A stretch of DNA of 64,000 nt. Origin: Dehalococcoidia bacterium. Lineage in GTDB: Bacteria > Chloroflexota > Dehalococcoidia > Bin125. The stretch lies in NCBI GenBank assembly GCA_965237475.1, contig OZ250140.1:1763549-1827548 (forward strand), read 5' to 3'. The position numbers and the translations under genes are program-made. Below are positions 3,305-32,019 of the stretch, piece by piece (the stretch's first letter is position 1; the number at the start of each line of letters is the position of its first letter). The notes beneath the pieces were generated by a model. That model was not told where the DNA came from. It worked only from the letters and a program-made list of their open reading frames with translations, and did no database searches.

Positions 3305-3475
3305 CCGCTCGTCCCCCGTTCCAATCGCCGACCGACGCCAGCGGCGGAGGGCGGTCAGGACAGCAAGGGCGCCGCGACCCCCTGCATATTCGTCCAGATG
3401 CAATGCGTCGACGCCAGTAGGAGCCCTCTATTGCTCGCAATTGTTAGTCACTTATCGTAACTTGGCGTTGAGCGG

Positions 3476-4738: not shown

Positions 4739-4757
4739 TGCCGGCGCATCGCCGTGC

Positions 4758-5129
4758 CTAGCCGAGCAACCCCCACGCTCGTTGCATGCGCTTCGGCAGG
4801 CCTGCCGCCACCAGGCGCCAGGAGTCCTCGATCAGCTCTTCCAGCTCGTCGTCGGGCATCTCGCCGTTGAGCTGAACGGCGATCCAGTGCTGCTTGCTCA
4901 GATAGGCCGGGCTGCTGACCGACTCGTACTTGCCATGCAGCAGCGGCACGAGCGCCGGGTCGACCTTGATGCTGATCCCGCTCTGCTCCGTCGTCCCGCC
5001 GCCGAGGAAGCAGAAGATCTTGCCCTTCCCGGCCGGCCCGAGCTTGTAGACGAGGTCGTCTTCCCAGGGCGTGTCAGGCCACGCGCCGGGCAGCGATTCG
5101 CACAGCGCCTCGACCTGCTCACGGTCCAT
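4758..5129 (-). CDS. MmcQ/YjbR family DNA-binding protein
   Basis: 123 aa. Sequence pattern of the YjbR/MmcQ family (…KGKIFCFL…HWIAVQLNG…). Confidence 0.75.
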   Translation of the reverse strand: MDREQVEALCESLPGAWPDTPWEDDLVYKLGPAGKGKIFCFLGGGTTEQSGISIKVDPALVPLLHGKYESVSSPAYLSKQHWIAVQLNGEMPDDELEELIEDSWRLVAAGLPKRMQRAWGLLG

Positions 5130-6061
5130 CAGCTCGGCTCGCCCGTCAGGAAGCGGCGCGGCACGTCGCGCATCATCAAATCCACCGTCTCCGCGGGCAC
5201 GCCGTCGCCGATCATCGCCGGCAGCGCCACAGTCGCCAGGAAGAGGTAGGTCGTCGGCGACTGCTCATTGTGCACGCCCGGCGCATAGTCGTGGCCGAGC
5301 ATGATCTTCTCCGCCCAGCCGCGCCTGATCAGCTCCTCGACGGTCGCGTTGCGCGCCACCCAGTTGGGCCGCCCGCGCCCGTCGGGCGGGCCCGGATAGC
5401 GATCCATCGAGAGGTAGACGCCTGCCTTGAGCAGGTCCTCGAGGTAGTCCGCGTCGGTCGAATCGGCCGAGTGGCCAACGCAGATGCGGTCCATCGGCGC
5501 GTCTTCCTCCTGGAAGATCTCCACCTGCCGACGCCCCACCTCGAGCGGCGCCCAGTGGTGCGTGCTGATCGGGCAGCCGGTTCGCTTGAGCGCGCGCACC
5601 GCGGCGCGCAGCACCAACTCGGCCTGCGGCGTCACGCCCTCCGCGTCGTTGGCGACCTTGATCGCGCCCGGCTTGATCCCCGTCGCGCCGATCCCGACCT
5701 CGACCTCGCGGACGAACACGTCGGCGATCTCGTCGGGATGCTTGTTCCAGAACCAGCGCGGGATGTCGCGCCACAGGCCGGTCGCGCAGACGACGTTGAC
5801 GCCGCTGGCGGCCGAGACCTCCGCCATCAGCTCCACATCGCGCTGGAGGTCGGGCGTGCTCAGCTCGATCAGCGAATCGACCCCGCCGGCCTTCGCCTCC
5901 GTCAGTTCGCGGATCGATCGGGCCTTGATCGCCTCGCGGTCGACGAGCCACGGATAGTGCGTCGTGATGACAGCCGGCTGCATCGCGACATGCTCGTGGC
6001 TCAGCGTGAAGCCGAGTTCAGCGCTGTCGATTAGTCCGAGCACGGTTTCGATCGTGGCCAT
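5129..6061 (-). CDS. phosphotriesterase-family (PTE-homology) amidohydrolase
   Basis: 310 aa. GFTLSHEHV...LIELSTPDLQRD...IKVA...STHH...VGHSAD...LGHDY matches the metal-ligand pattern of the PTE/PHP family. Confidence 0.8.
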   Translation of the reverse strand: MATIETVLGLIDSAELGFTLSHEHVAMQPAVITTHYPWLVDREAIKARSIRELTEAKAGGVDSLIELSTPDLQRDVELMAEVSAASGVNVVCATGLWRDIPRWFWNKHPDEIADVFVREVEVGIGATGIKPGAIKVANDAEGVTPQAELVLRAAVRALKRTGCPISTHHWAPLEVGRRQVEIFQEEDAPMDRICVGHSADSTDADYLEDLLKAGVYLSMDRYPGPPDGRGRPNWVARNATVEELIRRGWAEKIMLGHDYAPGVHNEQSPTTYLFLATVALPAMIGDGVPAETVDLMMRDVPRRFLTGEPS

Positions 6062-6112: not shown

Positions 6113-7390
6113 TCAGGCTTCGGCGCTGGTCAGGTTCTCGAGGAACTCGATGTTGGTCTTGGTCCGGGCCAGCCGGTCGAGCAGCCGCTCGGTCGGCTCC
6201 GTGCTGTTGCCGCCCGAGCCGGCCAGCACCGACATCATCCGGCGCAGCAGCCACATGCGCTGCAGCTCCTCGCCCGAGAGCAGCAGCTCCTCGCGGCGCG
6301 TGCTGCTCGCGGCGATGTCGATCGACGGGTAGATGCGCCGCTCGGAGAGCTTGCGGTCGAGCCGCACCTCCCAGTTGCCGGTGCCCTTGAACTCCTCGAA
6401 AACCACGTCGTCGAGGCGGCTGCCGGTGTCGACCAGGCAGGTCGCGATGATCGTCAGGCTGCCGCCCTCTTCGGCCTTGCGCGCCGAGCCAAAGAAGCGC
6501 TTCGGCGGGTAGAGCGCGACCGGGTCGATGCCACCCGAGAGCGTGCGACCGGTCGAGGGCATTTCGAGGTTGTAGGCGCGCGTCAGCCGCGTGATCGAGT
6601 CGAGCAGGATCACCACGTCGCGGCCCATCTCCATCAGCCGCTTGGCGCGCTCCAGGCCCAGCTCGGCGCAGCGCGTGTGATCTTCGACCGGCTCGTCGAA
6701 CGTCGAGGCGACCACTTCGCCGCGCACCGTGCGCCGCATCTCGGTGACTTCCTCGGGGCGTTCGCCGATCAGCACGACCATCAGGTGTACGTCGGGGTGG
6801 TTGGTGGCGATGCCGTTGGCGATCGCCTGCAGCAGCATGGTCTTGCCGGCCTTGGGCGGCGAGACGATCAGTCCGCGCTGCCCGCGGCCCATCGGCGCGA
6901 CGAGGTCGATCACGCGGCCCGAAAGCTCGCTCGGATCTTCGCTCTCGATCGTGAACCGCTGGTGCGGGAAGACGGCGGTCAGCGTCTCGAAGTGGGGCCG
7001 CTGCCTGGCCAGCTCGGGCTCGGCACCGTTGACCAGCACCGCGTCCTGCAGGCCGTAGTACTTCTCGCCGCTCTTGGGCGGGCGGACCGGGCCGATCACG
7101 TAGTCGCCGCTGCGCAGGTCGTGGCGGCGCACGTGCGCCTGCGAGACGTAGACATCGGTCGGCGCGGGCAGCAGCGATTCGCCGCGCAGGAAGCCGTAGC
7201 TGTCGTCGACGACTTCCAGCACGCCGCCCGAGAGCACGTTGCCCTCGGCCTCGCTCTCGGCCTGCAGGATGCGCAGGATGATGTCCTGCTTCTTCAGGCC
7301 GGTGAGGCCGCGAACCTCCAGTTCGCGGGCGCGCGTGAGCAGCTCATCGCGCGTATGGGACTCGAGATCGGTGATGGTCAGGGTCGTCAC
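6113..7390 (-). CDS. rho: transcription termination factor Rho
   Basis: …[15 protein letters not shown]… at the N-terminus, P-loop [12 protein letters not shown] and [20 protein letters not shown] at the C-terminus. Likely GTG start at 7390 with AGAGGT upstream; the ORF continues to an ATG at 7447. Confidence 0.9.
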
Positions 7391-7575
7391 GGCTACCTCT
7401 GATTGCCGACGCTGCGTGCTGCGTGGAAGAGCTGCGCGCGAACGCACGGCGGGACACTGATGCGGTCATTGCTCAACGGTGAGACGGAGCGGCCCGCGGA
7501 ACGAAGTTGCGAGACTGATCGTATGCGACTCGTGCGCTTGCCTGCAAGCACCCGCGCGACACGGGTCACAGAGCA

Positions 7576-8265
7576 CTAGCTGACCGGAGTCGCGCTGAGC
7601 TGCGCCTGGGCCGACCGCCAGTCGGCCAGGAAGGCGTCGATCCCCTTGTCGGTCAGCGGGTGCTTGAGCATCTGCTCGATCACGCTGAAGGGCAGCGTCG
7701 CGATGTGCGCGCCCGCCAGCGCGCAGCGCGCCACATGCTGCGGACCACGCAGCGAGGCGGCGATCACCTGGGTCGGCAGGTGGTACTGGTCGAGCACGGC
7801 AACCACATCCTGGACCAGCTCGACGCCGTCCTGGCCGATGTCGTCGAGCCGTCCCACGAACGGGCTGACAAAGGCCGCGCCGGCGCGGGCCGCCAGCAGC
7901 GCCTGATTGAGCGAGAAGATCAGCGTCGTGTTGACCTGGATCCCGCGCTCGCTGACGCGGTGAATCGCGCCCAGCCCGGCGGCGTCGATCGGGATCTTCA
8001 CCACCACCTGCTCATGCCAGGAGGCCAGCTCGATCGCTTCGGCGACCAGCTCCTCCTCGCTGCGCGAGACGCACTCGGCGGAGATCGGCCCATCGACCAG
8101 CTCCGCGATCCGCACCACGCGTTCGCGGTATTGCAGCGCTCCGTCGCCTTCGCGGGCGACCGCCCGGGCGTGCAGCGAGGGGTTGGTCGTCACGCCGTCG
8201 CAGACGCCCCAGGCGACCGCTCGCTCGATCTCGTCGAGGTGGCCAGTGTCGAGAAAGATACGCAT
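7576..8265 (-). CDS. tal: transaldolase / fructose-6-phosphate aldolase family protein
   Basis: 229 aa. MRIFLDTGHLDEIERAVAWGVCDGVTTNPSL...KIPI...; short Fsa/TalC-type class I aldolase. Confidence 0.85.
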   Translation of the reverse strand: MRIFLDTGHLDEIERAVAWGVCDGVTTNPSLHARAVAREGDGALQYRERVVRIAELVDGPISAECVSRSEEELVAEAIELASWHEQVVVKIPIDAAGLGAIHRVSERGIQVNTTLIFSLNQALLAARAGAAFVSPFVGRLDDIGQDGVELVQDVVAVLDQYHLPTQVIAASLRGPQHVARCALAGAHIATLPFSVIEQMLKHPLTDKGIDAFLADWRSAQAQLSATPVS

Positions 8266-8292
8266 CGGTCGGGGTCCTCTCAGGCGTCGGGA

Positions 8293-8769
8293 TCAGGGTT
8301 GCAGGGTGACGAGCGCGACCTGGACGGGTAACAGGATCAGCATCAACACTGAGAAGACTAGCGGGCCGCGATCGGCCAGCGCATCCTGCAGTTCGTCGGA
8401 CACCACGCCGGTCTTGCGCGCCTGCAGCGAAAGCAGTCGCACGCGCCGCAGGCCGGCGAACATGCCGGGCACCAGCACGAACAGCGCAATCAGGTAGAGA
8501 ATCTCGACCGCCAACAGCCAGCCCGTGGTGATCGGGTCCGCGGCATCGGAGCGGATGCCCCAGATGGCGCCGAGCACCCCTGTCGCGATGATCCCGGGCA
8601 GCAGCATCCGGGTGTGCGCGCGGTCGCCGCTGTTGAACAGCACATCGCGCTCGACCGGGTCCTCGGTCTGCCAGGCGCGGGTCAGCGCGAGCGTCAATGC
8701 GCTGACGCCGCCGCCGTAGACCAGCGCGGCGATGGCGAGCAGAAAGCGAAAGACATCGTCGGCGGACAC
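8293..8769 (-). CDS. DUF2269-like integral membrane protein
   Basis: 158 aa with four predicted TM helices. Classic small-membrane-protein pattern. Confidence 0.55.
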   Translation of the reverse strand: MSADDVFRFLLAIAALVYGGGVSALTLALTRAWQTEDPVERDVLFNSGDRAHTRMLLPGIIATGVLGAIWGIRSDAADPITTGWLLAVEILYLIALFVLVPGMFAGLRRVRLLSLQARKTGVVSDELQDALADRGPLVFSVLMLILLPVQVALVTLQP

Positions 8770-8786
8770 CGCGCGGCTGCCTGGCG

Positions 8787-10463
8787 CTACTCAGCTGCGG
8801 GCGCGGGCAACACGCCGGCAGAGGACGTGGCTGCGGCGCCGCGCAGCGGCGCCTCGGCGGCCTGCAGCACGCGCTCGATAAAGCCCACGAAGAGCGGGTG
8901 CGGGCGACCCGGCCGCGAGCGCAGCTCGGGGTGGAACTGGGTGCCCAACATGAACGGGTGGTCGCGCACCTCTGCGATCTCAACCAGCGTGCCCTCCGGC
9001 GAGTCGCCCGACGCGATCAATCCTGCGCTCTCCAGTTGCCCGCGATAGAGCGGATTGAACTCCCAACGGTGGCGGTGCCGCTCAAGCACGACCGCGTCGT
9101 CGTAGAGCGACCAGGCCAGCGTGCCGGGCTGGAGGTGGCAGGGGTAGCCACCCAGGCGCATCGTGCCACCCATATGGGTGACCGCGAGCTGCTCGTCGAG
9201 CATCGCGATCACCGGATAGTCGGTGTCCTCGTCGGCCTCGGTGGTACCCGCGGTCTCCCAGCCGAGGCGGGAACGCGCGAAGCCGATCACCATGTTCTGC
9301 ATCCCTCGGCAGAGGCCCAGATAGGGCAAGCGCTGTTCGAGCGCGAACCGCGCCACGCTGACCTCGCCCTCGACGCCGCGCTTGCCGAAGCCGCCGGGCA
9401 CGATCACGCCCTCGACATCGGCCAGCCGCGCCGCGATCTCGGCCTGGCTCGCGTGATCCAGCTCGTCCGACTGCACCCAGGCGATCTCCACCTCGGTCGA
9501 ACGCTCGACGCCGGCGTGGATCAACGCCTCGCGCACCGAGAGGTACGAATCGCGCAGCTCGACGTACTTGCCGACGATCGCCACGCGGCAGCGCCGTTGG
9601 GGCCGGCCGAGCCGGGTGACCCACGCGCGCCAATGCTCCAGTCCGGTGTCCTCGCGCGGCGTCAACGCGAGGCGCTCGAGCGTCAGCGTGGTCAGGCCTG
9701 CGTCCTCGAGGATCTCGGGCACGTGATAGATGCTGTCCACTGTCAGGACGGGAATCACCGCGTCGAACGGCACGTCGCAGAAGAGCGCCACCTTGCGACG
9801 GATGCCGTCGTCGACGGGCACGTCGGTGCGCGCGAGAATGACATCGGGCTGGATACCCATTGAACGCAGCGTGCGCACTGAGTGCTGGGTCGGCTTGGTT
9901 TTGACCTCGTCGGTGGCCCGTAGATAGAACAGCGGCGTGACGTGAATCGCGAGCGTCCCGTGCGGCGGTTCCTCGTAGCGCATCTGGCGAATCGCCTCGA
10001 GGAAGGCCTGGCCTTCGATGTCGCCCACGGTGCCGCCGACCTCCACGATCAGCACGTCGGCGTTCGATCGCCGAGCCAGCCCGCGGACTCGTTCCTTGAT
10101 CGCGTCGGTCACGTGCGGCACGGTCTGAATCGTGCCGCCGAGATAGTCGCCCTTGCGCTCGCGCTCGATCACGAGGGCTGAGATCTGTCCCATCGTGACC
10201 GACGAAGCGCCGGTCAGGTCCTGATCGAGGAAGCGCTCGTAGTGGCCGAGGTCGAGGTCGGTCTCCGAGCCGTCCTCGGTCACGAACACTTCGCCGTGCT
10301 GGTACGGGGACATCGTGCCGGGGTCGACGTTGAGGTAGGGGTCGAGCTTCTGGACCGAGACGCGTAGGCCGCGGCTATCGAGCAGCTTGGCCAGCGACGC
10401 GCTGGCGATCCCTTTGCCGACTGAGCTGATCACGCCGCCGGTGATGAAGATGTAGCGGGTCAT
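8787..10463 (-). CDS. pyrG: CTP synthase
   Basis: MTRYIFITGGVISSVGKGIASASLAKLL..., synthetase domain, and a C-terminal glutamine amidotransferase domain (GLCRGMQ, HRHRWEFN). The ORF track extends 36 codons further upstream, to 10571; the conserved start is MTRYIF. Confidence 0.92.
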   Translation of the reverse strand: MTRYIFITGGVISSVGKGIASASLAKLLDSRGLRVSVQKLDPYLNVDPGTMSPYQHGEVFVTEDGSETDLDLGHYERFLDQDLTGASSVTMGQISALVIERERKGDYLGGTIQTVPHVTDAIKERVRGLARRSNADVLIVEVGGTVGDIEGQAFLEAIRQMRYEEPPHGTLAIHVTPLFYLRATDEVKTKPTQHSVRTLRSMGIQPDVILARTDVPVDDGIRRKVALFCDVPFDAVIPVLTVDSIYHVPEILEDAGLTTLTLERLALTPREDTGLEHWRAWVTRLGRPQRRCRVAIVGKYVELRDSYLSVREALIHAGVERSTEVEIAWVQSDELDHASQAEIAARLADVEGVIVPGGFGKRGVEGEVSVARFALEQRLPYLGLCRGMQNMVIGFARSRLGWETAGTTEADEDTDYPVIAMLDEQLAVTHMGGTMRLGGYPCHLQPGTLAWSLYDDAVVLERHRHRWEFNPLYRGQLESAGLIASGDSPEGTLVEIAEVRDHPFMLGTQFHPELRSRPGRPHPLFVGFIERVLQAAEAPLRGAAATSSAGVLPAPAAE

Positions 10464-10798: not shown

Positions 10799-11686
10799 TC
10801 AACGCCCGATCCGGGCGAGCGCGTCGCGCAGAATCGCGGCCCCGGCCGATCGAACACCGCGTGAGTTGGGCGCCCCGCCCATCGGGTAGGGAAAGAGCGT
10901 GGCGAAGCGTGAGAGGCTGATGGCGAGGGCCTGCGCGCGGGCGGCTTCGGGCCCATCGGGATCGCAGCCACGCCAGAAGGTCGCGGCCTCGCCGCGCGCC
11001 GCAGCGAAGGCCTGCGCCGCGCGCGCGTGGCCCTGCGGTTCGATCGGGTCGTCGCCGGCAAGGATCGAGATCCAGCGCGCGGTGTTGACGGCCGAGGCGG
11101 AAGCGGTCGCTGCAGCCGCCGCAGCCGCCGTGTCCCGCAGCGAGGCGGCGTCCTCCGGCTCATCGGCGCCGAGGCGGATGATCACGAGCGGCACGGAGCT
11201 CTGCAGTTCGTCGTAGGGCAGCCACGGACCAACCTGGTCCGTCATCTGTCCGTCGCGACGCCAGGCGCGCCGATCGTCATCGAACCCGACGATCAACCCG
11301 AAGGTCGGCCCGAACGGATCGAGGCCCGCACGGGCTGCCACGATCGGTCGGCCGGCCGCGAGCTCGCCGCGCAGGCGGCGGCGGAGCAATCGCCAGCTCA
11401 GGCCGGCCGGCGGCTCGTCGCGGCGCGTCACATCGATCCCGACACCGAGCGCGCCGAGGCCCTCCGCCAGCCTGCCGGGCAGCTCCAGCGGGTCCGGCTG
11501 CGGCTCGAACCAGACGCCCTCCACGGGTTCCGTCGGCACCGGCGGCGGCGCGCCGGCGACGCCGCTGAGCGCGCAGACCACGGCGCTGTCGACCTCGCGT
11601 CCGATCGCCCGCAACGCGCCGACGAGGCTGCCGACGAGCGGGTTCCAGTTATATTCGTATTGGGCCTCCACCAGCCGCCGAGCCAC
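10799..11686 (-). CDS. hypothetical protein
   Basis: 295-aa ORF with consistent GC3 bias, packed between the ThiS-like gene and the divergently transcribed M16 peptidase. No family recognised. Confidence 0.4.
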   Translation of the reverse strand: MARRLVEAQYEYNWNPLVGSLVGALRAIGREVDSAVVCALSGVAGAPPPVPTEPVEGVWFEPQPDPLELPGRLAEGLGALGVGIDVTRRDEPPAGLSWRLLRRRLRGELAAGRPIVAARAGLDPFGPTFGLIVGFDDDRRAWRRDGQMTDQVGPWLPYDELQSSVPLVIIRLGADEPEDAASLRDTAAAAAAATASASAVNTARWISILAGDDPIEPQGHARAAQAFAAARGEAATFWRGCDPDGPEAARAQALAISLSRFATLFPYPMGGAPNSRGVRSAGAAILRDALARIGR

Positions 11687-19337: not shown

Positions 19338-19808
19338 ATGCCCACGAAGGAACTGTTTGGCCGCTACCTCGAGCAGTTTGAGGTCGGCGAGGTGATCGAG
19401 CACTGGCCCGGCCGCACGGTCACCGAGGCCGATGACCTGATGTTCTGCATGCTGACGATGAACCATCACCCACTGCATACGAACCTCGAATACGCCGAGG
19501 GCACGCAGTTCGGCCAGCGCGTGGTTTCGGGTCCGTTCGTCTACTCGCTGGTCTTTGGGATGACCGTGCCGATGATCAGCGGCAAGGCGATCGCAAATCT
19601 CGCGACGAACGACCTGCGGCACACGGCGCCGGTCTTCCACGGCGACACGCTGACGGCCCGCACGGAGGTCACCGGCATCCGCGAGTCACGATCGCAGCCC
19701 GACCGCGGGATCGTGACGGTCAACACGACCGCCCAGAATCAGCACGGCGAAACCGTGTTAGAGTTCACTCGTGCCGTCATGATCCCGAAGCGGCCGGATG
19801 GTGAGTGA
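19338..19808 (+). CDS. MaoC-family (R)-specific enoyl-CoA hydratase/dehydratase
   Basis: 156 aa. Hot-dog fold pattern ...NHHPLHTNLEYAEGTQFGQRVVSG... Confidence 0.8.
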   Translation: MPTKELFGRYLEQFEVGEVIEHWPGRTVTEADDLMFCMLTMNHHPLHTNLEYAEGTQFGQRVVSGPFVYSLVFGMTVPMISGKAIANLATNDLRHTAPVFHGDTLTARTEVTGIRESRSQPDRGIVTVNTTAQNQHGETVLEFTRAVMIPKRPDGE

Positions 19809-20233
19809 TGATCGAAATCAACTCGGGCTCGGACCTGGAACGCTCAGTTGTGCGTGTCGGCAAGGCGCTCGGCCTGGACGTGGAGACGCAAGTCGTCATG
19901 GGCGACCGCATCTGGGGCCCGCGCCGCCACGTTGATGTGGTGCTGAGCAAGACTGACTCCGATCGAATCATCGGCATCGAGTGCAAGTACCAGCGCCAGT
20001 CGGGCTCGGTCGAAGAGAAGATTCCCCTGACGGTCGAGGACATCGAAGACTGGCCGATTCGGGGCATTGTCGTCGTCCACGGCGAGGGCTTCTCGCGCGA
20101 CTTCGTGCCCTTCCTGCGGGGCCGAGGTCGGATCGTGGAGTTCAAGCGCCTCGCCGAGTGGTTGCGCTTCTATTTCCGCCTGTCACGCGAGCGCGCGCTC
20201 CAGGCCGAGATGCTGCTCAACGGCGACTCCTAG
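19805..20233 (+). CDS. small PD-(D/E)xK nuclease, putative type II restriction endonuclease
   Basis: 142 aa. RRHVDVVLSK...RIIGIECKYQ gives a D...(E)xK motif. The start overlaps the MaoC stop (ATGA). The 3' end overlaps the convergent Dam-like methyltransferase by 4 nt. GC is lower than in the neighbours. Confidence 0.5.
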   Translation: MMIEINSGSDLERSVVRVGKALGLDVETQVVMGDRIWGPRRHVDVVLSKTDSDRIIGIECKYQRQSGSVEEKIPLTVEDIEDWPIRGIVVVHGEGFSRDFVPFLRGRGRIVEFKRLAEWLRFYFRLSRERALQAEMLLNGDS

Positions 20234-21066
20234 CCAGCTCGAATCAGGTACTCGGGCACGGGCTGGCGACCGTTGCTGTTGGAGTTGATCGCGCGCCGCG
20301 CTGCGACCTCCGCCAGCACGAACGCTTCTGACCGATAGAGCGCCGCCACATCGGGATGCCCGGAGTTGGACAGCGCCACCGCCGCTCCCTGGCGCGCCAG
20401 CGACTCGGCCGTCGTCGCGAGGCGTTGCTGATCCGCCAGACGGAACGCTGCGGAGGTGTACGACGTAAAGTTCGCCGTCGTGCTGAGCGGCACGTAGGGC
20501 GGATCGAAGTAGACGAAGTCGCCTGTGCCGGCCTCAGCGGCCGCCTCCGTGAAGTCCCCGACGCGTAGCTCCACCCTGGACAGCGCCTCCGAGGCAGCGC
20601 GCAGATTCGGCTCATCGCAGATCATCGGCTTGGCATAGCGGCCGTGGGGCACGTTGAAGCCGCCGCTGCTGTTGACACGGTAGAGACCGTTGAAGCATGT
20701 CTTGTTGAGGAAGATCAGGTTCGTCGCGCCGCCCAGGTCGCAGGTCAGCCGCTTGGCGCGGATGGTGTAGTAGTACTCCGCCCGCGCCTCGCCCTCGCGC
20801 GACCGGTACTTCCCCTCATGGACCCGCAGCGCGTGGACTAACTCCTCCACGTGATCGCGGACCTGGATGTAGGCGTTGATCAGCTCAGCGTTGCTGTCGG
20901 ACAGCACCGCACGCTTGAAGCGCCCCTGCGCCTGCAGCGCGAAGAACAGCGCTCCACCGCCCACGAACGGCTCGTAGTAGGTCTCGATCTGCGCGGGCGC
21001 GGCCTGCAGCAGCTCCGCGAGCAGTTGCGTCTTGCCGCCGGCCCATTTGACGAATGGTCGAGCCAC
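20230..21066 (-). CDS. Dam-like N6-adenine DNA methyltransferase (alpha class)
   Basis: FVKWAGGKTQLL...YYEPFVGGGALFF...NGLYRVN..GFNVPHGRY...DFVYFDPPYVPLSTTANFTSYT is colinear with E. coli Dam and DpnM. Confidence 0.85.
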   Translation of the reverse strand: MARPFVKWAGGKTQLLAELLQAAPAQIETYYEPFVGGGALFFALQAQGRFKRAVLSDSNAELINAYIQVRDHVEELVHALRVHEGKYRSREGEARAEYYYTIRAKRLTCDLGGATNLIFLNKTCFNGLYRVNSSGGFNVPHGRYAKPMICDEPNLRAASEALSRVELRVGDFTEAAAEAGTGDFVYFDPPYVPLSTTANFTSYTSAAFRLADQQRLATTAESLARQGAAVALSNSGHPDVAALYRSEAFVLAEVAARRAINSNSNGRQPVPEYLIRAG

Positions 21067-21871: not shown

Positions 21872-22552
21872 ATGCCGCCACAAGCAACAAACATCATCGC
21901 GACGATCGACGCGGAGGTCTCGGCCTGCCGCGCCTGCGAGCGACTCGTGGCCTGGCGCGAAGGCGTAGCGGCTGAGAAACGCGCGGCGTTCCGCGACGCC
22001 GAGTACTGGGGCCGTGGAGTGCCAGGCTTCGGGCCGGCCGACGCGCGGGTCTGGGTCGTGGGGCTCGCGCCCGCGGCGCACGGAGCGAACCGCACGGGGC
22101 GGATGTTCACCGGCGATCGCTCGGGCGACTGGCTCTACCGCGCGATGCATCGGGCGGGGCTGGCGAACCAGGCTGAGAGCACGGGGCGCGACGACGGGCT
22201 GGAGCTGGTCGGAGCGCGCGTGACATCGGTCGTGCGCTGTGCGCCGCCCGACAACAAGCCGACGATCGCCGAGCGTGACCGCTGTCTGCCGTTCCTGGCG
22301 CGCGAGCTGGCTGCACTCCCGGAGCTGCGTGTGATCGTGACGCTCGGCGCCTACGCGTGGGAGAACGTGGCGCGCCAGTTGGGCATCCGCCCGCGGCCCA
22401 AATTCGGGCACGCTCGGGAGACGCTGACCGAGCGTGGGCCGATTGTGCTCTGCTCCTACCACCCGAGCCAGCGCAACACCTTCACGGGCAAGCTGACGGC
22501 GCCGATGCTGGGCGCGATCTTCGCCCGTGCCGCGGAGCTCGCCGGGCTCTGA
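21872..22552 (+). CDS. uracil-DNA glycosylase superfamily protein (family 4/5, Fe-S type; GLAPAAHG motif)
   Basis: CRACERL..., VVGLAPAAHGANRTGRMFTGDRSGDWL, CAPP...TLGAYA. Start chosen at MPPQ (21872) to avoid overlap with the divergent membrane-protein gene. Confidence 0.75.
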   Translation: MPPQATNIIATIDAEVSACRACERLVAWREGVAAEKRAAFRDAEYWGRGVPGFGPADARVWVVGLAPAAHGANRTGRMFTGDRSGDWLYRAMHRAGLANQAESTGRDDGLELVGARVTSVVRCAPPDNKPTIAERDRCLPFLARELAALPELRVIVTLGAYAWENVARQLGIRPRPKFGHARETLTERGPIVLCSYHPSQRNTFTGKLTAPMLGAIFARAAELAGL

Positions 22553-22644
22553 CTGAGCGCTCTGACTGGGCGCTCCGCCGCCCCGCCGGTTGGTTAGCCT
22601 TCGGCTACGGCGGCGATGCCCGCGCAGGTCGAGAGGAGCTGGCG

Positions 22645-25074
22645 ATGCTGAGCGACTACCGGATTCTGGACCTGACCGATGAGGACGGGCTGATCGGCGG
22701 GATGATCCTCGCCGATCTGGGCGCCGATGTGATCGCGGTCGAACCGCCCGAAGGCAACAGCGCGAGGCGGCGCGGGCCGTTCGCGGGCGACCCCTCCGAC
22801 GTCGAGGGCTCGCTGGTCTGGCAAGCGTGGGCGCGCAACAAGCGATCGGTGGTGATCGACCTCGAGAGCGATGACGGGCACGAACAGCTGCGCCGGCTCG
22901 CGGCGACGGCCGATGCGCTGATCGAGTCGGACGCGGTCGGTGCGATGGCCGCGCGCGGGCTGGGCTACGACGACCTCGCCGCGATCAACCCCGGCCTGGT
23001 CTACGCGGCGATCACACCGTTCGGCACGAGCGGTCCGAAGGCGAGCTGGCGGGCGAGCGACGTGACCGTGGCGGCTTCGGCCGGGCCGATGTCGCAAAGC
23101 GGCGACTCGGACCGCGCGCCGCTGCGCGTCAGCCTGCCGCAGACCGGCCTGCACGCGGGCGCTGAGGCCGCGGTCGCTGTGCAGATCGCGCTGTGGGAGC
23201 GCAAGCGCTCGGGACGCGGGCAGTTCATCGATGTCGCGGCGCAGGCCGCACACGCGCAGGCTACGCAGTCGGGCATTCTGGCAGCTCCGCTGAAGGCTGC
23301 TTCGTTCCTGCGCTCAGCCAAGGGGCTGAGGCTCGGCCCGCTCGAAATTCAGCTGTTCTGGCCGTGTAAGGACGGGCATGTGGCGATCACGTACCTGTTC
23401 GGCGCGGCGATCGGGCCGTTCACCGCACGGCTGATGCAATGGGCCTATGAGGAGGGCCATTGCGACGAAGCGACGCGCGACAAGGACTGGCTCAACTACA
23501 CGCTGTTGCTGCTGACCGGACAGGAGCCGATCTCGGAGTACCTCAGGCTGCTGCAGGTGGTCGAGTCGCTGTCGATAACCAAGACCAAGGCGGAGTTGTT
23601 CGAGGCGGCGCTCGAACGCCGGCTGCTGATCGTGCCCGTCTCGACGATGGCAGACGTGGCCGAGAACGAACAGCTGGCGACGCGCGAGTACTGGCGCGAC
23701 GTCGAACGCCAGGGCCGCAGTCTGCGCTTCCCCGGCCCGTTCGCGCGGTTCTCGGGCTCGGCGATCGAGTACCGCCGTCCCGCGCCGTTGTTGGGCGAAC
23801 ACAGCGGCGAAGTGCTCGCCGAGGTCCGCTCGGCCGCCAGCCTGAATGGGTCGGGCGACGATGCTGGGTTGCCGCTGGATGGCCTGAAGATGCTCGACCT
23901 GATGTGGGTGATGGCGGGGCCGGCCGGGACCCGACCGCTGGCCGACTTCGGGGTGCAGACCGTGCGCGTCGAGTCGAGCACGAGAATCGATACGGCCCGC
24001 ACGCTGCAGCCGTTCATCGATGACAACTCCACGCAGGCGGACGGCTCGGGCATGTTCCACAACATGAACGCGAACAAACTGATGACGACGGTCGACCCGG
24101 CGAATCCGGTCGGCCGCGAGCTGCTGCTCGACCTGGTGCGCTGGGCGGACGTGCTGACCGAGTCGTTCACGCCGCGTGCGATGCGGGGCTGGGGGCTGAC
24201 CTGGGAGGAGCTGCACGCGGTCAACCCGCGGCTGATCATGCAGTCGTCGTGCCTGATGGGGCAGACGGGCCCGCTCTCGGATTTCGCGGGCTACGGCACG
24301 CTGGCGGCATCGATCGCCGGCTTCACGCCGCTCTGCAGCTGGGCCGACCGCGCGCCCGCCGGACCGTTCGGGGCCTACACCGACTACGTCGCTCCGCGGT
24401 TCGCCACCGCGGCGCTGCTGGCGGCGTTGAAGCAGCGCGAGCGCACGGGTGTGGGCCAGTACATCGATATGTCTCAGCTCGAGGCGGGCATCCACTTCCT
24501 CACCCCGGCGTTCCTGCAGTACGGCGTCTCGGGACGTATCTGGGAGTCCGACGGCAACCGCGACCCGCATATGGCCCCACACGGCGTCTATGCCTCGAGC
24601 GGCGACGATCAATGGGTCGCGATCGCGGCGGCCAATGATGCCCAGTGGTCGGCGCTCGCCGCCGCGATCGGCGGCGGCCTGGCGGAGGAGGCGCGCTTCG
24701 CCTCGCTCGATGGCCGGCTCGCCGCGCAGGACCAGCTCGACGCGGCGATCTCGGCCTGGACCAGCGAGCGAACGCCCAACGAAGCGATGGAGGCGCTACA
24801 GGCGGCGGGCGTCGCGGCGCACGCGGTGCAGAGCAGGCCCGAGCTGATGATCGACCCACAGCTGGCGCAGCGCGGGCACCTCGTGCAGCTCACGCACGCG
24901 ACGCAGGGCGCGAGCACCGTCGAGGGCGCGCGCGTGGTGTTCTCGCGGACGCCCGCGCGACGCCCAACCGTGGCCCCGGTGATGGGCGCCGACAACGAAA
25001 TGGTGCTGCGCGATTTGCTCGGCTACGACGACGAGCGAATCGTCGAAGTCGTGGCCTCGGGCGCGCTGCAGTAG
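22645..25074 (+). CDS. tandem-duplicated family III CoA-transferase (two CaiB/BaiF domains fused, 809 aa)
   Basis: The first domain starts MLSDYRILDLTDEDGLIGGMILADLGADVIAVEPP. A second copy of the signature (LKMLDLMWVMAGPAGTRPLADFGVQTVRVES) begins about residue 410. A GAGGAG RBS precedes the ATG at 22645. Confidence 0.75.
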   Translation: MLSDYRILDLTDEDGLIGGMILADLGADVIAVEPPEGNSARRRGPFAGDPSDVEGSLVWQAWARNKRSVVIDLESDDGHEQLRRLAATADALIESDAVGAMAARGLGYDDLAAINPGLVYAAITPFGTSGPKASWRASDVTVAASAGPMSQSGDSDRAPLRVSLPQTGLHAGAEAAVAVQIALWERKRSGRGQFIDVAAQAAHAQATQSGILAAPLKAASFLRSAKGLRLGPLEIQLFWPCKDGHVAITYLFGAAIGPFTARLMQWAYEEGHCDEATRDKDWLNYTLLLLTGQEPISEYLRLLQVVESLSITKTKAELFEAALERRLLIVPVSTMADVAENEQLATREYWRDVERQGRSLRFPGPFARFSGSAIEYRRPAPLLGEHSGEVLAEVRSAASLNGSGDDAGLPLDGLKMLDLMWVMAGPAGTRPLADFGVQTVRVESSTRIDTARTLQPFIDDNSTQADGSGMFHNMNANKLMTTVDPANPVGRELLLDLVRWADVLTESFTPRAMRGWGLTWEELHAVNPRLIMQSSCLMGQTGPLSDFAGYGTLAASIAGFTPLCSWADRAPAGPFGAYTDYVAPRFATAALLAALKQRERTGVGQYIDMSQLEAGIHFLTPAFLQYGVSGRIWESDGNRDPHMAPHGVYASSGDDQWVAIAAANDAQWSALAAAIGGGLAEEARFASLDGRLAAQDQLDAAISAWTSERTPNEAMEALQAAGVAAHAVQSRPELMIDPQLAQRGHLVQLTHATQGASTVEGARVVFSRTPARRPTVAPVMGADNEMVLRDLLGYDDERIVEVVASGALQ

Positions 25075-28306: not shown

Positions 28307-29407
28307 TCAGAGCTGACTGAGCTCGATCGGCGTGCTGGAGCGCGCCGACTCGTAGATGCCGAAGACGATCTTCATCGTCTCGATGTTGTCGCGGCCGCTG
28401 CTGATCGGCTCGCCGCCGTCCTCGCAGCAGCGCGCGAAGTGCTGAATCTCGTTGATGTAAGGGTTGGCGGTCGGGAGGTTGAGGTCGTCGGTGTCGATCG
28501 GCTGGAAACTCTCGGAGGGTCGGAAGCCGTCCTCGCCGTCCTGCGCGGCGCTGGCGATCACGGCCGGGGCGCGGTGCCACATCAGCGGTGAGTTGCTGTC
28601 GGGCGGCGGCGTCCAAGCCGTGCCCTGCTCGCCGATCAGCAGCAGCTGGAAGGCCCAGGGAGCGCGGCTGCTGAAGCTGGCGGTCAGCATCCCGACCGCG
28701 CCATTTTCAAACTCCAGCGTCGCCACCGCGCGATCCTCGGCGTTGTTGGTGAAGCTCGGGTTACCGGTCCAGATCCGCGCGTCGACCCGCGCGACCTCGC
28801 CGACGAAGTAGCGCATCAGGTCGAGGTGGTGCACGGAGAGCATGGTGATGACGCCGCCGCCGCCGCGCTTGCCGTCGAAGCCCCACCAGCCCGAGCGGGG
28901 CGCGATCGGCTGAGCGCCGTCGTCGAGCGCGGCGGTCAGGAAGGTGTCACAGCGCGCCGACCAGATTTGGCCCAACTCGCCGGCGTTGATGCGTCGGCGC
29001 AGGGCGACGTAGCTCGGCACATGGCGTAGGTGCTGGGCGACCATGAAGGTGACGCCGGCCTCCTCTGTCGCTTCGATGATCGCTCGGCACTCATCGAGCG
29101 AGATGGCCATCGGCTTTTCGAGCAGCACGTGCTTGCCGGCGCGGGCGGCGGCGATCGCCAGCGGCGCGTGCTGGTCGTGGATCGTGCAGATGTCCACGGC
29201 GTCGATATCGGACTGTTCGAGCATCTCGTCGGCGCTGGTGAAGACGGCATCGACGCCGGCCTCGTCGGCGAATTTGAGCGCCGCGTCCTCGCGGATATCG
29301 CAGACCGCCGTGAGCCGGAGATCGTCCGGCGCCAGCTGGTAGCCGGGCAGATGCTGCCGCGAAATCCCGCCTGTGCCGATCAGTCCGACCTTCAGTGGCT
29401 CAGCCAT
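28307..29407 (-). CDS. Gfo/Idh/MocA family oxidoreductase
   Basis: N-terminal Rossmann VGLIGTGGISRQH, ...HVLLEKPMA... and a C-terminal GFO_IDH_MocA domain. Confidence 0.8.
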   Translation of the reverse strand: MAEPLKVGLIGTGGISRQHLPGYQLAPDDLRLTAVCDIREDAALKFADEAGVDAVFTSADEMLEQSDIDAVDICTIHDQHAPLAIAAARAGKHVLLEKPMAISLDECRAIIEATEEAGVTFMVAQHLRHVPSYVALRRRINAGELGQIWSARCDTFLTAALDDGAQPIAPRSGWWGFDGKRGGGGVITMLSVHHLDLMRYFVGEVARVDARIWTGNPSFTNNAEDRAVATLEFENGAVGMLTASFSSRAPWAFQLLLIGEQGTAWTPPPDSNSPLMWHRAPAVIASAAQDGEDGFRPSESFQPIDTDDLNLPTANPYINEIQHFARCCEDGGEPISSGRDNIETMKIVFGIYESARSSTPIELSQL

Positions 29408-29507: not shown

Positions 29508-29584
29508 GGGCCCTTAGCTCAGTTTGGCAGAGCAGCGGACTTTTAATCCGAAGGTCCTGGGTTCGAGCCCCAGAGGGCCCACCA
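29508..29584 (+). tRNA. tRNA-Lys (anticodon UUU)
   Basis: Cloverleaf by eye: acceptor GGGCCCT/AGGGCCC, D-arm GCTC...GAGC, anticodon loop cTTTTaa, T-arm CTGGG-TTCGAGC-CCCAG, discriminator A and an encoded CCA. Confidence 0.85.
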
Positions 29585-29657
29585 CTTCCGGCTTCTGGGG
29601 CGGAATTGCGAAGTGCTCCACAGGCCGCCACGGCAGACGGAGCTGGTTTCACCCTTG

Positions 29658-30956
29658 CTAGGCCCTGCCGCCCGGTAGCGTGGGAGTCCAAAGGCCTGGG
29701 TTCGAGCCAATCAAGTCTTGGACGACGTCGTCCGCATTGAGGCTGCCGGCTTGAACAAGAGCCCATTGCCTGTACAGGTCTGTGGTTTGAATAAAGACAG
29801 CTTCGACTGTCTCAGCTGCCTGTGCGACGTTGGAATCAGGCGATTGCCGAGACGACGGGTCCGTTCGCCGAAATGGGTTCCAAATCCACAGGGTCAGATC
29901 GGGCGGGTTGCCCTTCTCGGCGCTGTAGCGCACTCGGTATTCCCCAATTTGGCGGTTGTCGCTTGTTCTCGTTCCGTTGGTGTAGCCCTTTATCTCGGCG
30001 ATGGCTTCCCAGCCGGAGAGTCCTGCGATGGTAAGACGCAGGTCTTCGCGTTTCCGCTCATTCGGCTTGAGCCCAGCATCCATGTTCTCCACAATAAAAT
30101 CCAGGTCCTGAAGGATCTCGCACACGACGGCAACCAATTCGTCACCGTCTTCCCAGATCGCACGTCTGATCCCTCGATCGGCTCTATCACTCGCAGCCGC
30201 TAGGTCAGTCTCGAGTCGCTGCCGCTCGTCGTCCAGCTGCTCGATTTCACCCTCGATCCCGGCAATTCTCTCTGCCAGTGCGTTCTCCTCCGGTGCGTAC
30301 CAGTCGGATGGTTTGCTGAGGCGAGGCGGTGCCTGCGGGACTCTGACAGGGTCGCTCTCATGGACATCGGTCAGGAATGCCCTGAACCACTCTCCTAGGT
30401 TGCGCACTGCTGGGAGAATTAGGGCAATGTCATTGTCTTCTGGGATGGGCACCCTTCTCGACGCTCGTGGAACGCGAAGGAGCAGTGCCACTGGGCGGCG
30501 TGACGTCGTTTCCACTAGAGCAATCGAGTCGCCTTTGCGCCCTCCCCGAGCGGTGATGACCGGAGGTGCCGTTGGTGCGCTGCTGAGAATTCGATTCAAC
30601 TCCGCAGCAAGAGTCATATACGCGTCCGGGCAGTTGGCGGCGACGGTCATCTCCCTCTCAGTATTGCGGGTATGCATGTGTGCGAGCTCGCGATATTGAG
30701 GAGGGGCGGCGTTCAGGCTTAGAACATCCCTGCCAAAACTCATGGGCCCGATCGTCAAGAGATGAACTCCCGCATCGATTCGATTGTGATCGAACGCTGT
30801 AGCAACAGCCACATCTGTTTCAGACCAGCTGTGGGTCTGGAGGTAATCCCCTAGCGAGGCCGCTGTCCTCAGATCCCCGCACAGCGGACGTATTGCGTCG
30901 ACTTGGGAGTCATTCAGCCCGATGGCCGCGACCCTGGGCCGCCTGATCTTCGTCAT
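29658..30956 (-). CDS. hypothetical protein of the tRNA-Lys islet (N-domain, coiled coil, C-terminal PD-(D/E)xK-like motif)
   Basis: 432 aa from the ATG at 30956 (GGAG RBS); the ORF track begins at a TTG at 31013. Low GC (~55%) against a ~68% background. Central heptad-rich segment EENALAERIAGIEGEIEQLDDERQRLETDL. C-terminal LQDLDF...GWEAIAEIKGY is D...ExK-like. Confidence 0.5.
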   Translation of the reverse strand: MTKIRRPRVAAIGLNDSQVDAIRPLCGDLRTAASLGDYLQTHSWSETDVAVATAFDHNRIDAGVHLLTIGPMSFGRDVLSLNAAPPQYRELAHMHTRNTEREMTVAANCPDAYMTLAAELNRILSSAPTAPPVITARGGRKGDSIALVETTSRRPVALLLRVPRASRRVPIPEDNDIALILPAVRNLGEWFRAFLTDVHESDPVRVPQAPPRLSKPSDWYAPEENALAERIAGIEGEIEQLDDERQRLETDLAAASDRADRGIRRAIWEDGDELVAVVCEILQDLDFIVENMDAGLKPNERKREDLRLTIAGLSGWEAIAEIKGYTNGTRTSDNRQIGEYRVRYSAEKGNPPDLTLWIWNPFRRTDPSSRQSPDSNVAQAAETVEAVFIQTTDLYRQWALVQAGSLNADDVVQDLIGSNPGLWTPTLPGGRA

Positions 30957-31217
30957 GCGCTTACTCCGGGCGTTTCGCGCGCCAAGTTGCTCTACGGCGT
31001 GGATTGCCCACAAGGAATTCTACGCGAAGTATCGGTCTGTCCTCGCTCGTTCGCGAGATTATCTCCAGTTCCAACGCCTGGTCGGCAGTCAGCTCCGCGG
31101 AGTCGCGCGCTCGGCCGTTCTCGATGCTCACGAGGCATCGGCGGTGCGGACGGTAAGTGTGTGCGGTGGGGCGGCGGTCGTCGGGCGGGAACGCGCGATC
31201 GGGGGTGGTGGCTAGGC

Positions 31218-31227
31218 GGGGGGGGGG
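31218..31227. repeat. G10 homopolymer inside a G-rich tract, 7 nt past the crp/fnr stop
   Basis: ggcgGGGGGGGGGGttggg, with gggggtggtgg just upstream (31201-31211). Confidence 0.7.
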
Positions 31228-31233
31228 TTGGGA

Positions 31234-32019
31234 TTAGCACTGGAAGCCGCCGGGGTGTAGGAGCTGGGCCGTTTCATCCCACTCGGCGGTGATCTCGTCG
31301 GGCGTTTGCAGGCACTCGCAGGCGAGGTGGGCGATCGAATCGGGTTGCAGAATCCGAATCGATCCGCGGCCCACGGAGGCGATCAGGCCCTCTCGGGCCA
31401 GCGGCGCCAGCGCGCTGCTGACGGCGGGCCGGGTCGCCCCGACCACCTCGGCGAGCTCCTCGTGGGTGATCGGGATGATGTCGCCGTCGGCCTCACCGTG
31501 GACGATTTCGAGCCAGGCACAGCAGCGCATGCCGAGCGGATGGAAGCGGGCGCAGAGCGCGTTGCTTGCCGCGAGCCGGAACTTGCGGGCGTGCGCCCTC
31601 GCGAGCGCCATCTGGAGCGTCGGCGAGGCCGCCGCGACGGAGCGCACGACGGCAGCCGGGACGGCGATCGCCTGACCGGCCAGGCGGACCTTGTAGAACA
31701 GGAAGAAGGGCATCCCGTGGACCGCGCGCATGCCGCCGACCGCGCCCTGCGAGCCGACGAAGACGGGCTGGATGCAGTCGCCATCGGGAGTTTCGAGGGT
31801 GCCGCCGAGGATGCCGCTGACGGGGAAGAGCACGCGATCGGTGGTGGCCCAGTAGTCGAACCGGTCGCCGCGCTTGAGCGGAACGATCTCAGCGTCGTCG
31901 AGCAGCTCTGCGAGTGCGCGCGCCGGGACCTGCGCGAGGATCGCGTTGGCGAGCGCAGCGGTTTCGTCAACGCCGCGAAGGCCGGTGGCCTGATCGTTCT
32001 GAGGAATCCGGATGGCCAT
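31234..32019 (-). CDS. Crp/Fnr family transcriptional regulator
   Basis: N-terminal cNMP-binding beta-roll and a C-terminal HTH (EELAEVVGATRPAVSSALAPLAREGLI). Confidence 0.8.
   Translation of the reverse strand: MAIRIPQNDQATGLRGVDETAALANAILAQVPARALAELLDDAEIVPLKRGDRFDYWATTDRVLFPVSGILGGTLETPDGDCIQPVFVGSQGAVGGMRAVHGMPFFLFYKVRLAGQAIAVPAAVVRSVAAASPTLQMALARAHARKFRLAASNALCARFHPLGMRCCAWLEIVHGEADGDIIPITHEELAEVVGATRPAVSSALAPLAREGLIASVGRGSIRILQPDSIAHLACECLQTPDEITAEWDETAQLLHPGGFQC

Follow-up and report, generated by a model that had tools for sequence, protein, structure and literature searches.

Between a conserved gene for a Crp/Fnr-like regulator (crp) and the gene for tRNA-Lys(UUU), a 64,000-nt stretch of a Dehalococcoidia bacterium genome (contig OZ250140.1; hereafter the window) carries a short segment of low guanine plus cytosine (GC) content. 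The segment holds a single gene, read from the minus strand, whose product belongs to a protein family without annotation. On the other side of the tRNA lies a Gfo/Idh/MocA oxidoreductase gene, the second conserved neighbour of the site (Table 1). In conspecific contigs the same flanks enclose unrelated cassettes between the same two breakpoints. The segment is probably one allele of a strain-variable, replacement-type defence hotspot, and its cargo gene a candidate solitary restriction-like nuclease, to which a defence function is attributed from the company it keeps and from its predicted fold.

Table 1. Features of the interval between crp and tRNA-Lys and of its flanks (window coordinates; aa, amino acids; nt, nucleotides)
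Feature	Position	Strand	Basis or remark
Gfo/Idh/MocA oxidoreductase gene	28307-29407	-	Pfam GFO_IDH_MocA, 4.8e-31; conserved left-flank core gene
tRNA-Lys(UUU)	29508-29584	+	ARAGORN (anticodon ttt); Rfam RF00005, 68.2 bits; sole tRNA in the window
Post-tRNA flank (CTTCCGGCTTCTGGGGCGG..TTGCG)	29585-29611	+	Common to the window, L054 and L055 in the alignment
Variable cassette (allele of the window)	29612-31155	none	One gene with its 5' region; from breakpoints against L054/L055 and composition
Cargo gene, 432 aa, unannotated family	29658-30956	-	Intact open reading frame
tRNA T-arm-like repeat	29685-29708	+	Exact over 14 nt at 29695-29708; within the cargo gene
Predicted catalytic codons	29988-30080	-	D293, 30080-30078; E304-D305, 30047-30042; E321-x-K323, 29996-29988
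5' region and first ~136 codons of the cargo gene	30548-31155	-	Common to the L060/L061 alleles, DNA identity 83-100%
G10 tract	31218-31228	+	Form taken in the window by a G/C-rich spacer that directly follows the crp stop codon
Crp/Fnr-like regulator gene	31234-32019	-	Pfam HTH_Crp_2, 3.3e-13; conserved right-flank core gene

The tRNA-Lys gene reported by the initial annotation, which had been made from the sequence alone, is confirmed by both searches listed in Table 1. Windowed GC content is 0.57-0.61 across about 29600-31100, against 0.65-0.73 in the flanks, and amounts to 0.595 (59.5%) over the variable segment (29612-31160) as compared with 0.676 (67.6%) for the whole window. The drop recognised earlier is therefore real, and only the figures first given for it (~55% against 68%) were slightly too low. 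Codon usage, proposed at that stage as a check, points the same way, since GC at third codon positions (GC3) is 0.637 in the cargo gene and 0.82-0.90 in six adjacent genes. The foreign composition of the gene is real and strong. Family alignments establish the ATG at 30956 as its start. A small upstream open reading frame (ORF) on the minus strand (30961-31131) was considered as a second gene and rejected; it is frameshifted in contig L060 and poorly conserved in L061. A promoter and terminator scan together with Rfam gave no signal besides the tRNA. As had been noted, no integrase accompanies the gene: no Pfam family of recombinases or integrases was found within +/-10 kb of it. The nearest methyltransferase gene (MethyltransfD12) lies ~9 kb away, and there is none within the cassette.

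The limits of the segment were established by comparison with sister contigs, recovered with the Gfo/Idh gene as an anchor (orthologues at 74-96% identity). The Gfo/Idh proteins of L054 and L055 are 96% identical to that of the window. The flank DNA of the conspecific contigs L054, L055, L060 and L061 is 87-94% identical to that of the window (BLASTN), and the Gfo/Idh-side flank is 87-93% identical in L054, L055, L061 and L065. The tRNA-Lys gene, identical in all slot alleles, marks the left edge of the hotspot, and the crp-like gene adjoins the slot in L054, L055, L060 and L061. On the left, homology with L054 and L055 ends at 29603-29610, that is, after the tRNA and ~25 nt, and with L061 at ~29600 by BLAST. 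On the right, it resumes at 31159-31166 in L054 and L055, ~70-80 nt past the end of the crp-like reading frame, and a five-way alignment places this breakpoint at ~31150-31155. The limits of 29585 and 31233 drawn from the sequence alone were consequently wrong, the comparative ones being ~29603-29612 and ~31150-31166. The G-tract, first taken for a boundary, lies inside the flank common to all alleles, where the others read GGCGGTGGCGG-like sequence.

Two small features of these flanks may be mentioned. The G10 homopolymer is specific to this genome, the sister alleles having an interrupted G/C-rich spacer in its place; either a proneness to slippage or a sequencing artefact at homopolymers could explain it. 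At 29567-29600, an inverted repeat spans the 3' end of the tRNA, the 3' strand of the T-stem and the acceptor strand (CCCCAGA) pairing with the post-tRNA flank (TCTGGGG). It is conserved in the alleles that retain this flank, and may be a processing or terminator hairpin, or a contributor to the left breakpoint.

Known defence systems are alternative occupants of the slot. In the window, the family gene stands alone between crp and tRNA-Lys. L055 carries an AAA ATPase and an S8 peptidase there, identified by PADLOC as IetA (4.2e-73) and IetS (1.6e-35). In L054, the place is taken by a Gp49/HigB-like and HTH_37 pair, a HigBA-like toxin-antitoxin system, together with an unknown gene of 276 aa. 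L061 has a copy of the family with 67% protein identity to that of the window and an AbiJ_NTD3 gene (4.9e-38), followed by tRNA-Lys, and L060 has another 67% family copy with a different ORF at the contig end. The cassettes of these five alleles are thus unrelated or mosaic, share two breakpoints, measure 1.5-3.8 kb and consist of one to three genes; with five alleles seen, occupancy statistics are weak. The earlier proposal of a foreign, strain-variable segment is upheld by its atypical composition and by the four other cargoes in the same slot of conspecific contigs. No recombinase or integrase is present in any of the five alleles, which, together with the unrelated or mosaic cassettes and their shared breakpoints, makes a replacement-type pattern for which an integrative element is not needed. 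An anti-phage role, suggested at the outset from the position beside a tRNA, becomes plausible given the IetAS, HigBA-like and AbiJ-domain occupants; for the cargo gene itself this function is deduced.

An empty site, with tRNA-Lys directly abutting crp, had been anticipated in related genomes and was not found among the contigs reached via the Gfo/Idh orthologues; JGI metagenomes, scanned for an exact match to the end of the tRNA and its flank, gave none. The nearer Gfo/Idh orthologues (84-96%: L054, L055, L057, L059, L061 and L065) retain tRNA-Lys, with other occupants or a different synteny. L058 (Gfo/Idh 82%) also retains it, with different neighbours, L056 is without a tRNA at the corresponding place, and in L062 and L063 the neighbouring genes differ from those of the window. 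The flank of tRNA-Lys is a synteny break in more distant relatives too. The tRNA abuts an SGL gene in L057 and L059, and the synteny of L065 with the window breaks off precisely where tRNA-Lys ends (3' side). L065 belongs to a 3.24-Mb circular genome with a Gfo/Idh protein >90% identical. The ~2 kb past its tRNA (3917-5823) are without called genes, and fn3/LRR and arylsulfotransferase/Calx-beta genes lie further on. Within this interval, an ORF at 5344-5640 resembles by its sequence the C-terminus of an insertion sequence (IS)-type transposase, perhaps as a remnant.

The allele of the window is itself composite. Its sliding identity to that of L060 is 99-100% in the promoter region and 83-94% over the first ~136 codons, and drops to 54-74% in the rest of the gene, comprising the linker, the coiled coil and the nuclease. 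The junction lies inside the gene at ~30548. In per-domain BLASTP comparisons, the N-terminal part is 80% identical, and the middle and C-terminal parts are 62-64% identical, no closer than those of unrelated family members. The drop within the gene argues that the window allele is recombinant, and its nuclease-bearing two-thirds would be of different ancestry from the N-terminal third. The extra gene located between the family gene and the tRNA in L060 and L061 is missing from the window allele.

The cargo protein has no match in Pfam, NCBIfam or PADLOC, where only coiled-coil noise was obtained, and the initial view of a single cargo gene without a recognisable family stands. A PDB profile search by sequence also returned only coiled-coil noise. 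PADLOC-DB 2.0.0 left the window protein unmatched at E<=1 and ten distant members of its family unmatched at E<=0.01; these ten likewise have no Pfam or NCBIfam match. A clearer picture comes from an AlphaFold model built with 35 homologues (mean predicted local distance difference test score, pLDDT, 81; predicted template modelling score, pTM, 0.51). In this model, the N-domain (aa ~8-200) is GATase1/flavodoxin-like, and a long predicted helix of ~45 residues (aa 222-268) can be read as a coiled coil. The C-terminal part (aa ~272-420) is a FokI-type PD-(D/E)xK cleavage domain with a restriction-endonuclease-like alpha/beta core. Foldseek ranked FokI first (6.9e-5), and hhalign of the broad-family profile against FokI, whose sequence was checked against 1FOK and 2FOK, spans the whole cleavage domain (134 columns, E 5e-4). 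In this register, E304-D305 falls on the "PD" of FokI and E321-V-K323 on its "D-T-K"; D305, E321 and K323 line up with D450, D467 and K469 in FokI numbering. Among 27 sequences, sampled down to an identity of 24%, residues D293, E304, D305 and E321 never vary, and K323 occurs in 24. The active site D...E-x-K is predicted to be intact. In the N-domain, the invariant residues are E46 and D48; the conserved nucleophilic Cys of the amidotransferases was not found in it, which does not fit a class I glutamine amidotransferase.

The family is large. An exhaustive profile search retrieved 1,328 representatives of 50%-identity clusters at E<=1e-3, 807 of them reaching 1e-10, and nearly all members are of ~420-460 aa. 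In species-representative genomes, they occur in Dehalococcoidia, Tepidiformaceae, Acidimicrobiia, Bryobacterales, Latescibacterota and metagenome-assembled genomes (MAGs) of Gammaproteobacteria; more distant members are found in cultured Actinomycetota and in Cystobacter. Members are 45-55% identical across these phyla, which argues for horizontal spread. No relatives were detected on 72,556 plasmids or in 50,697 phages (tBLASTN), nor in an IMG/VR scan. The host appears to be a population of closely related high-GC bacteria, and the relatives of the family are mostly from Dehalococcoidia/Chloroflexota and from other MAGs, several of which would be sponge symbionts to judge by names such as Poriferisodalis and Spongiisociaceae. 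Three MAGs carry two divergent copies each at separate loci (L018/L019, L017/L027 and L030/L033).

The neighbourhood of the family reveals no conserved partner. All-against-all ORF clustering of 53 loci gave a best neighbour cluster present in 6 loci and without a Pfam match. No partner is conserved across 48 loci, and the cassette of the window encodes no methyltransferase, in disagreement with a Type II or Type IIS restriction-modification (R-M) system. Defence-type genes among the immediate neighbours include Type IIG R-M (3 of 97 neighbours), DndB, SoFic, CHAT, Uma2 and PDC-S01/S03. Four independent contexts have the family gene and a tRNA gene pointing at each other, with 35-220 nt between their 3' ends: the group of the window (tRNA-Lys), L007/L010/L039 (tRNA-Lys), L002/L003 (tRNA-Tyr) and L012 (tRNA-Pro). 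About 0.2 such cases would be expected, as estimated from the tRNA density of the flanks, and ~4 are seen; no integrase is present in these contexts. Hotspots in tRNA flanks are evidently often occupied by this family. Its behaviour as a whole, with 1,328 clusters in several phyla, no partner, double copies, defence neighbours and tRNA contexts, is typical of defence genes.

Two of the loci show additional tRNA copies. In L012, two full tRNA-Pro(GGG) genes (3277-3352 and 11501-11576) lie 8.2 kb apart and bracket the family gene as well as DndB-like, NYN-domain, PhyH and Cache-domain genes, with no integrase among them. In L023, three tRNA-Gln(CTG) genes are found within 2.6 kb (7144-9700), just upstream of a family member.

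Replacement islands in which short, unrelated defence cassettes alternate between core genes, often beside a tRNA, have been described, and a transfer through the conserved flanks that leaves no mobile-element scar has been proposed for them (PMC10250203, PMC10121019). In Escherichia coli, 18 defence hotspots are located at tRNA loci (PMC10121019, Hochhauser et al. 2023). The slot in the window resembles these hotspots and cDHS1/2 of Pseudomonas aeruginosa (Johnson et al. 2023, PMC10250203) in its fixed position between conserved genes, here including one tRNA, in its varied and unrelated defence cassettes, and in being occupied in every strain examined. It also shares with them some occupants without identifiable mobility genes; for such sites, a transfer by flank homology has been proposed. 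In contrast to them, it is tiny (1.5-3.8 kb), belongs to an uncultured high-GC lineage in which five alleles have been seen, and one family recurs in it as divergent mosaic alleles.

Homologous recombination would be responsible for the exchange of cassettes, acting in the conserved flanks and, in the case of the cargo gene, also within the gene, with no need of a resident integrase. As in FokI, the cleavage domain would probably cut without specificity and only in paired form, the coiled coil might supply the dimer, and the N-domain could act as a sensor or gate. The protein would thereby be a solitary restriction-like (Type IV-like) or abortive-infection nuclease acting against invading DNA.

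Comparison with known enzymes gives some precision to this proposal. With the Type IIS enzyme FokI, the cargo protein shares a whole-domain alignment, the PD/(D/E)-x-K motif in register, and a C-terminal cleavage module behind an N-terminal one. It differs in lacking FokI-type recognition domains, in place of which it has the flavodoxin/GATase1-like fold and the coiled coil, in the absence of an adjacent cognate methyltransferase, and in its low identity of ~10-13%. Like the Type IV-like or abortive-infection PD-(D/E)xK nucleases (MspJI-type, Mrr), it is encoded by a single gene without an adjacent methyltransferase, joins a PD-(D/E)xK module to a separate sensor module, and has a defence-island location. 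It is set apart from these enzymes by a putative sensor module other than SRA, Mrr-N or a winged helix, and the protein matches nothing in PADLOC, Pfam or NCBIfam.

Several points weigh against a defence hotspot with an immune nuclease. The defence role is deduced by guilt by association and from the fold. Housekeeping genes (EF-G/LepA, short-chain dehydrogenases, Rieske oxygenases) surround many members of the family, defence-related genes make up only about a tenth of the immediate neighbours, and PADLOC matches are nil even for the distant members. The pTM of 0.51 leaves the domain arrangement uncertain, and hhalign gives a modest probability (30.6%) for FokI, with a single sequence as template. 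Recombination in the flanks alone does not explain how unrelated cassettes were first placed at identical breakpoints, and none of the alleles recovered is an empty site. The exact copy of a T-arm 14-mer in the cargo gene, discussed below, is statistically unusual (~0.01 expected) and is accounted for only by chance with coding constraint.

Some of these points would suit a different role for the gene, namely that of an accessory nuclease of DNA repair or recombination, or of a toxin-like gene, with no immune function and merely located in a recombination-prone tRNA flank. The many housekeeping neighbours and the lack of a match in the defence database are consistent with it. It is nevertheless rather unlikely, because conspecific strains vary in whether they have the gene and carry bona fide defence cassettes in its place at the slot, the GC3 of the gene differs strongly from that of the host, and some genomes have several divergent copies. 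Furthermore, the closest fold is the cleavage domain of a restriction enzyme, and defence genes are enriched among the neighbours relative to a genome background of 1-3%, which is our own estimate.

The initial annotation had favoured another origin, an integrative element, decayed or minimal, whose site-specific insertion at the 3' end of tRNA-Lys was followed by the loss of its integrase, a 22-nt repeat of the tRNA being its surviving attL/attR-type scar. The position immediately 3' of a tRNA agrees with this idea, tRNA genes being given as a classic integrase target by Williams (2002), as that work is cited in PMC10250203 and PMC10121019. All alleles break sharply 16-28 nt past the tRNA, family genes abut tRNA 3' ends in other lineages, tRNA-Pro is duplicated over 8.2 kb in L012, and a transposase-like remnant lies beside the tRNA in L065. 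The tRNA islands of tyrosine integrases (P4-like islands, satellites) have in common with the slot the position at the tRNA 3' end, the foreign composition and the defence-related cargo.

The repeat itself exists. The 14-mer CCTGGGTTCGAGCC occurs exactly twice in the window, in the T-arm of the tRNA (29556-29569) and at 29695-29708, against a chance expectation of ~0.01 per window even when one mismatch is allowed. The match can be extended to 19 nt at 89%, or to 22 of 23 nt with one mismatch and one indel. This improbability speaks for a scar, but the repeat flanks nothing. It lies 115 nt from the tRNA (the 14-mer copies being 139 nt apart) and 27-50 nt inside the 3' end of the cargo gene, and therefore cannot bracket the cassette. 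Read on the minus strand, it encodes G-S-N-P-G-L-W-T of the conserved C-terminal motif of the cargo protein. This PGLW(T)P motif is conserved throughout the family, G421 and W423 being invariant among 35 members. The repeat covers the variable loop, the 5' strand of the T-stem and the T-loop, and is without the 3' strand of the T-stem and the acceptor end. A displaced tRNA 3' end or an att duplication would include both of these.

Other alleles and homologues provide a further argument. At the position of the repeat, L060 reads GGCGCGAACCCCGGCCTCTGG, a 12/14 match that arises from its own codons; the window differs from it over the 14-mer by one Ala-to-Ser change and two synonymous changes. 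The TCGAACC core is found in 0 of the 33 other homologues with a locatable motif, among which are L007, adjacent to tRNA-Lys, and the loci adjacent to tRNA-Tyr and tRNA-Pro; L010 and L039, the two remaining loci beside tRNA-Lys, had no locatable motif. The gene-to-tRNA spacers of L007, L010 and L039 have nothing in common with that of the window, and there is no tRNA fragment at the right breakpoint near 31155. The 12/14 match in L060, the conserved coding motif and the position away from both breakpoints indicate that the repeat is not an att scar. The exact 14-mer is most likely a coincidence helped by coding constraint, and a short-patch conversion by the tRNA 139 nt away possibly contributes to it. 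In contrast to P4-like islands, moreover, none of the slot alleles has an integrase, the distal boundary has no repeat of the tRNA 3' end, and the sole tRNA-like repeat is internal to the cargo gene. No integrase or remnant of one was found in the five alleles or in the tRNA-adjacent family loci L012 and L007/L010. With neither an att repeat nor an integrase, the pattern fits a replacement-type hotspot, and a decayed integrative element is improbable.

Least probable is that the gene represents a selfish homing-type nuclease, a free-standing mobile unit and not a host defence, which spreads into tRNA flanks by cutting empty alleles: a solitary nuclease gene with no recombinase, with atypical codon usage, with a mosaic structure consistent with recombinational repair, and inserted alone at tRNA 3' ends in unrelated lineages (the group of the window, L007/L010/L039, L002 and L012; ~4 cases against ~0.2 expected) would suit it. 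Against it, most members reside in ~40 further contexts, unrelated to one another, in which neither a tRNA nor a shared target sequence occurs, the slot accepts unrelated cassettes (IetAS, the toxin-antitoxin pair) and is hence generic, and the gene-to-tRNA spacers share no sequence between lineages. Known homing endonucleases, moreover, do not resemble a protein of 430 aa that combines a sensor-like domain with a coiled coil.

If the replacement-type defence hotspot is accepted, the slot would be a small and cleanly delimited example in an uncultured, high-GC and probably host-associated lineage. The mapping of replacement hotspots has so far centred on E. coli, Pseudomonas and Vibrio. Hotspots of this kind are a known phenomenon; of the cargo family and its domain architecture, the resources searched contain no description. 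The combination of sensor, coiled coil and FokI-type domain has no counterpart in PDB, Pfam, NCBIfam or PADLOC, and a literature search for a FokI-like anti-phage system gave no description. A bolder, tentative proposal is that the family constitutes an undescribed and widespread group of single-gene immune nucleases, present in at least five phyla, in which a FokI-type cleavage domain would be gated by a flavodoxin/GATase1-like sensor through a coiled coil, and whose nuclease-bearing two-thirds would be swapped between alleles at tRNA-flank hotspots. This large unannotated family would then be a candidate new single-gene anti-phage nuclease. A FokI-type domain joined through a coiled coil to a sensor that does not look like a DNA-binding module would be a new way of controlling a non-specific nuclease, of possible interest for work on phage defence and for the engineering of nucleases. 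As the mosaic allele shows, intragenic recombination can be a source of diversity in such genes. The locus also provides a caution, as a statistically unusual tRNA-like repeat beside a tRNA turned out not to be an att site.

Other variable sites were observed in the same lineage. At 19808-21066 of the window (19891-21149 of L001), PDDEXK_11 and Dam-like MethyltransfD12 genes stand beside UDG and 224-aa genes, and the matching place in L057, L059 and L063 holds an N6_N4_Mtase-Mrr_cat-NA-iREase1 fusion gene. This looks like a second variable R-M or defence slot, ~9 kb from the first. Between common flanks formed by ECH_1 and a 243-aa gene, L057 (627-3848) encodes a Type ISP R-M enzyme, and L059 (1858-3647), which comes from the same sample, has GmrSD_N and HEPN_RiboL-PSP genes; this site is another replacement-type hotspot. 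Finally, L059 has an NYN-domain gene between its CoA-transferase and UDG genes, and L054 and L055 have one next to the CoA-transferase gene; the corresponding place in the window (~22550-23000) is without it, which is another small presence/absence difference.

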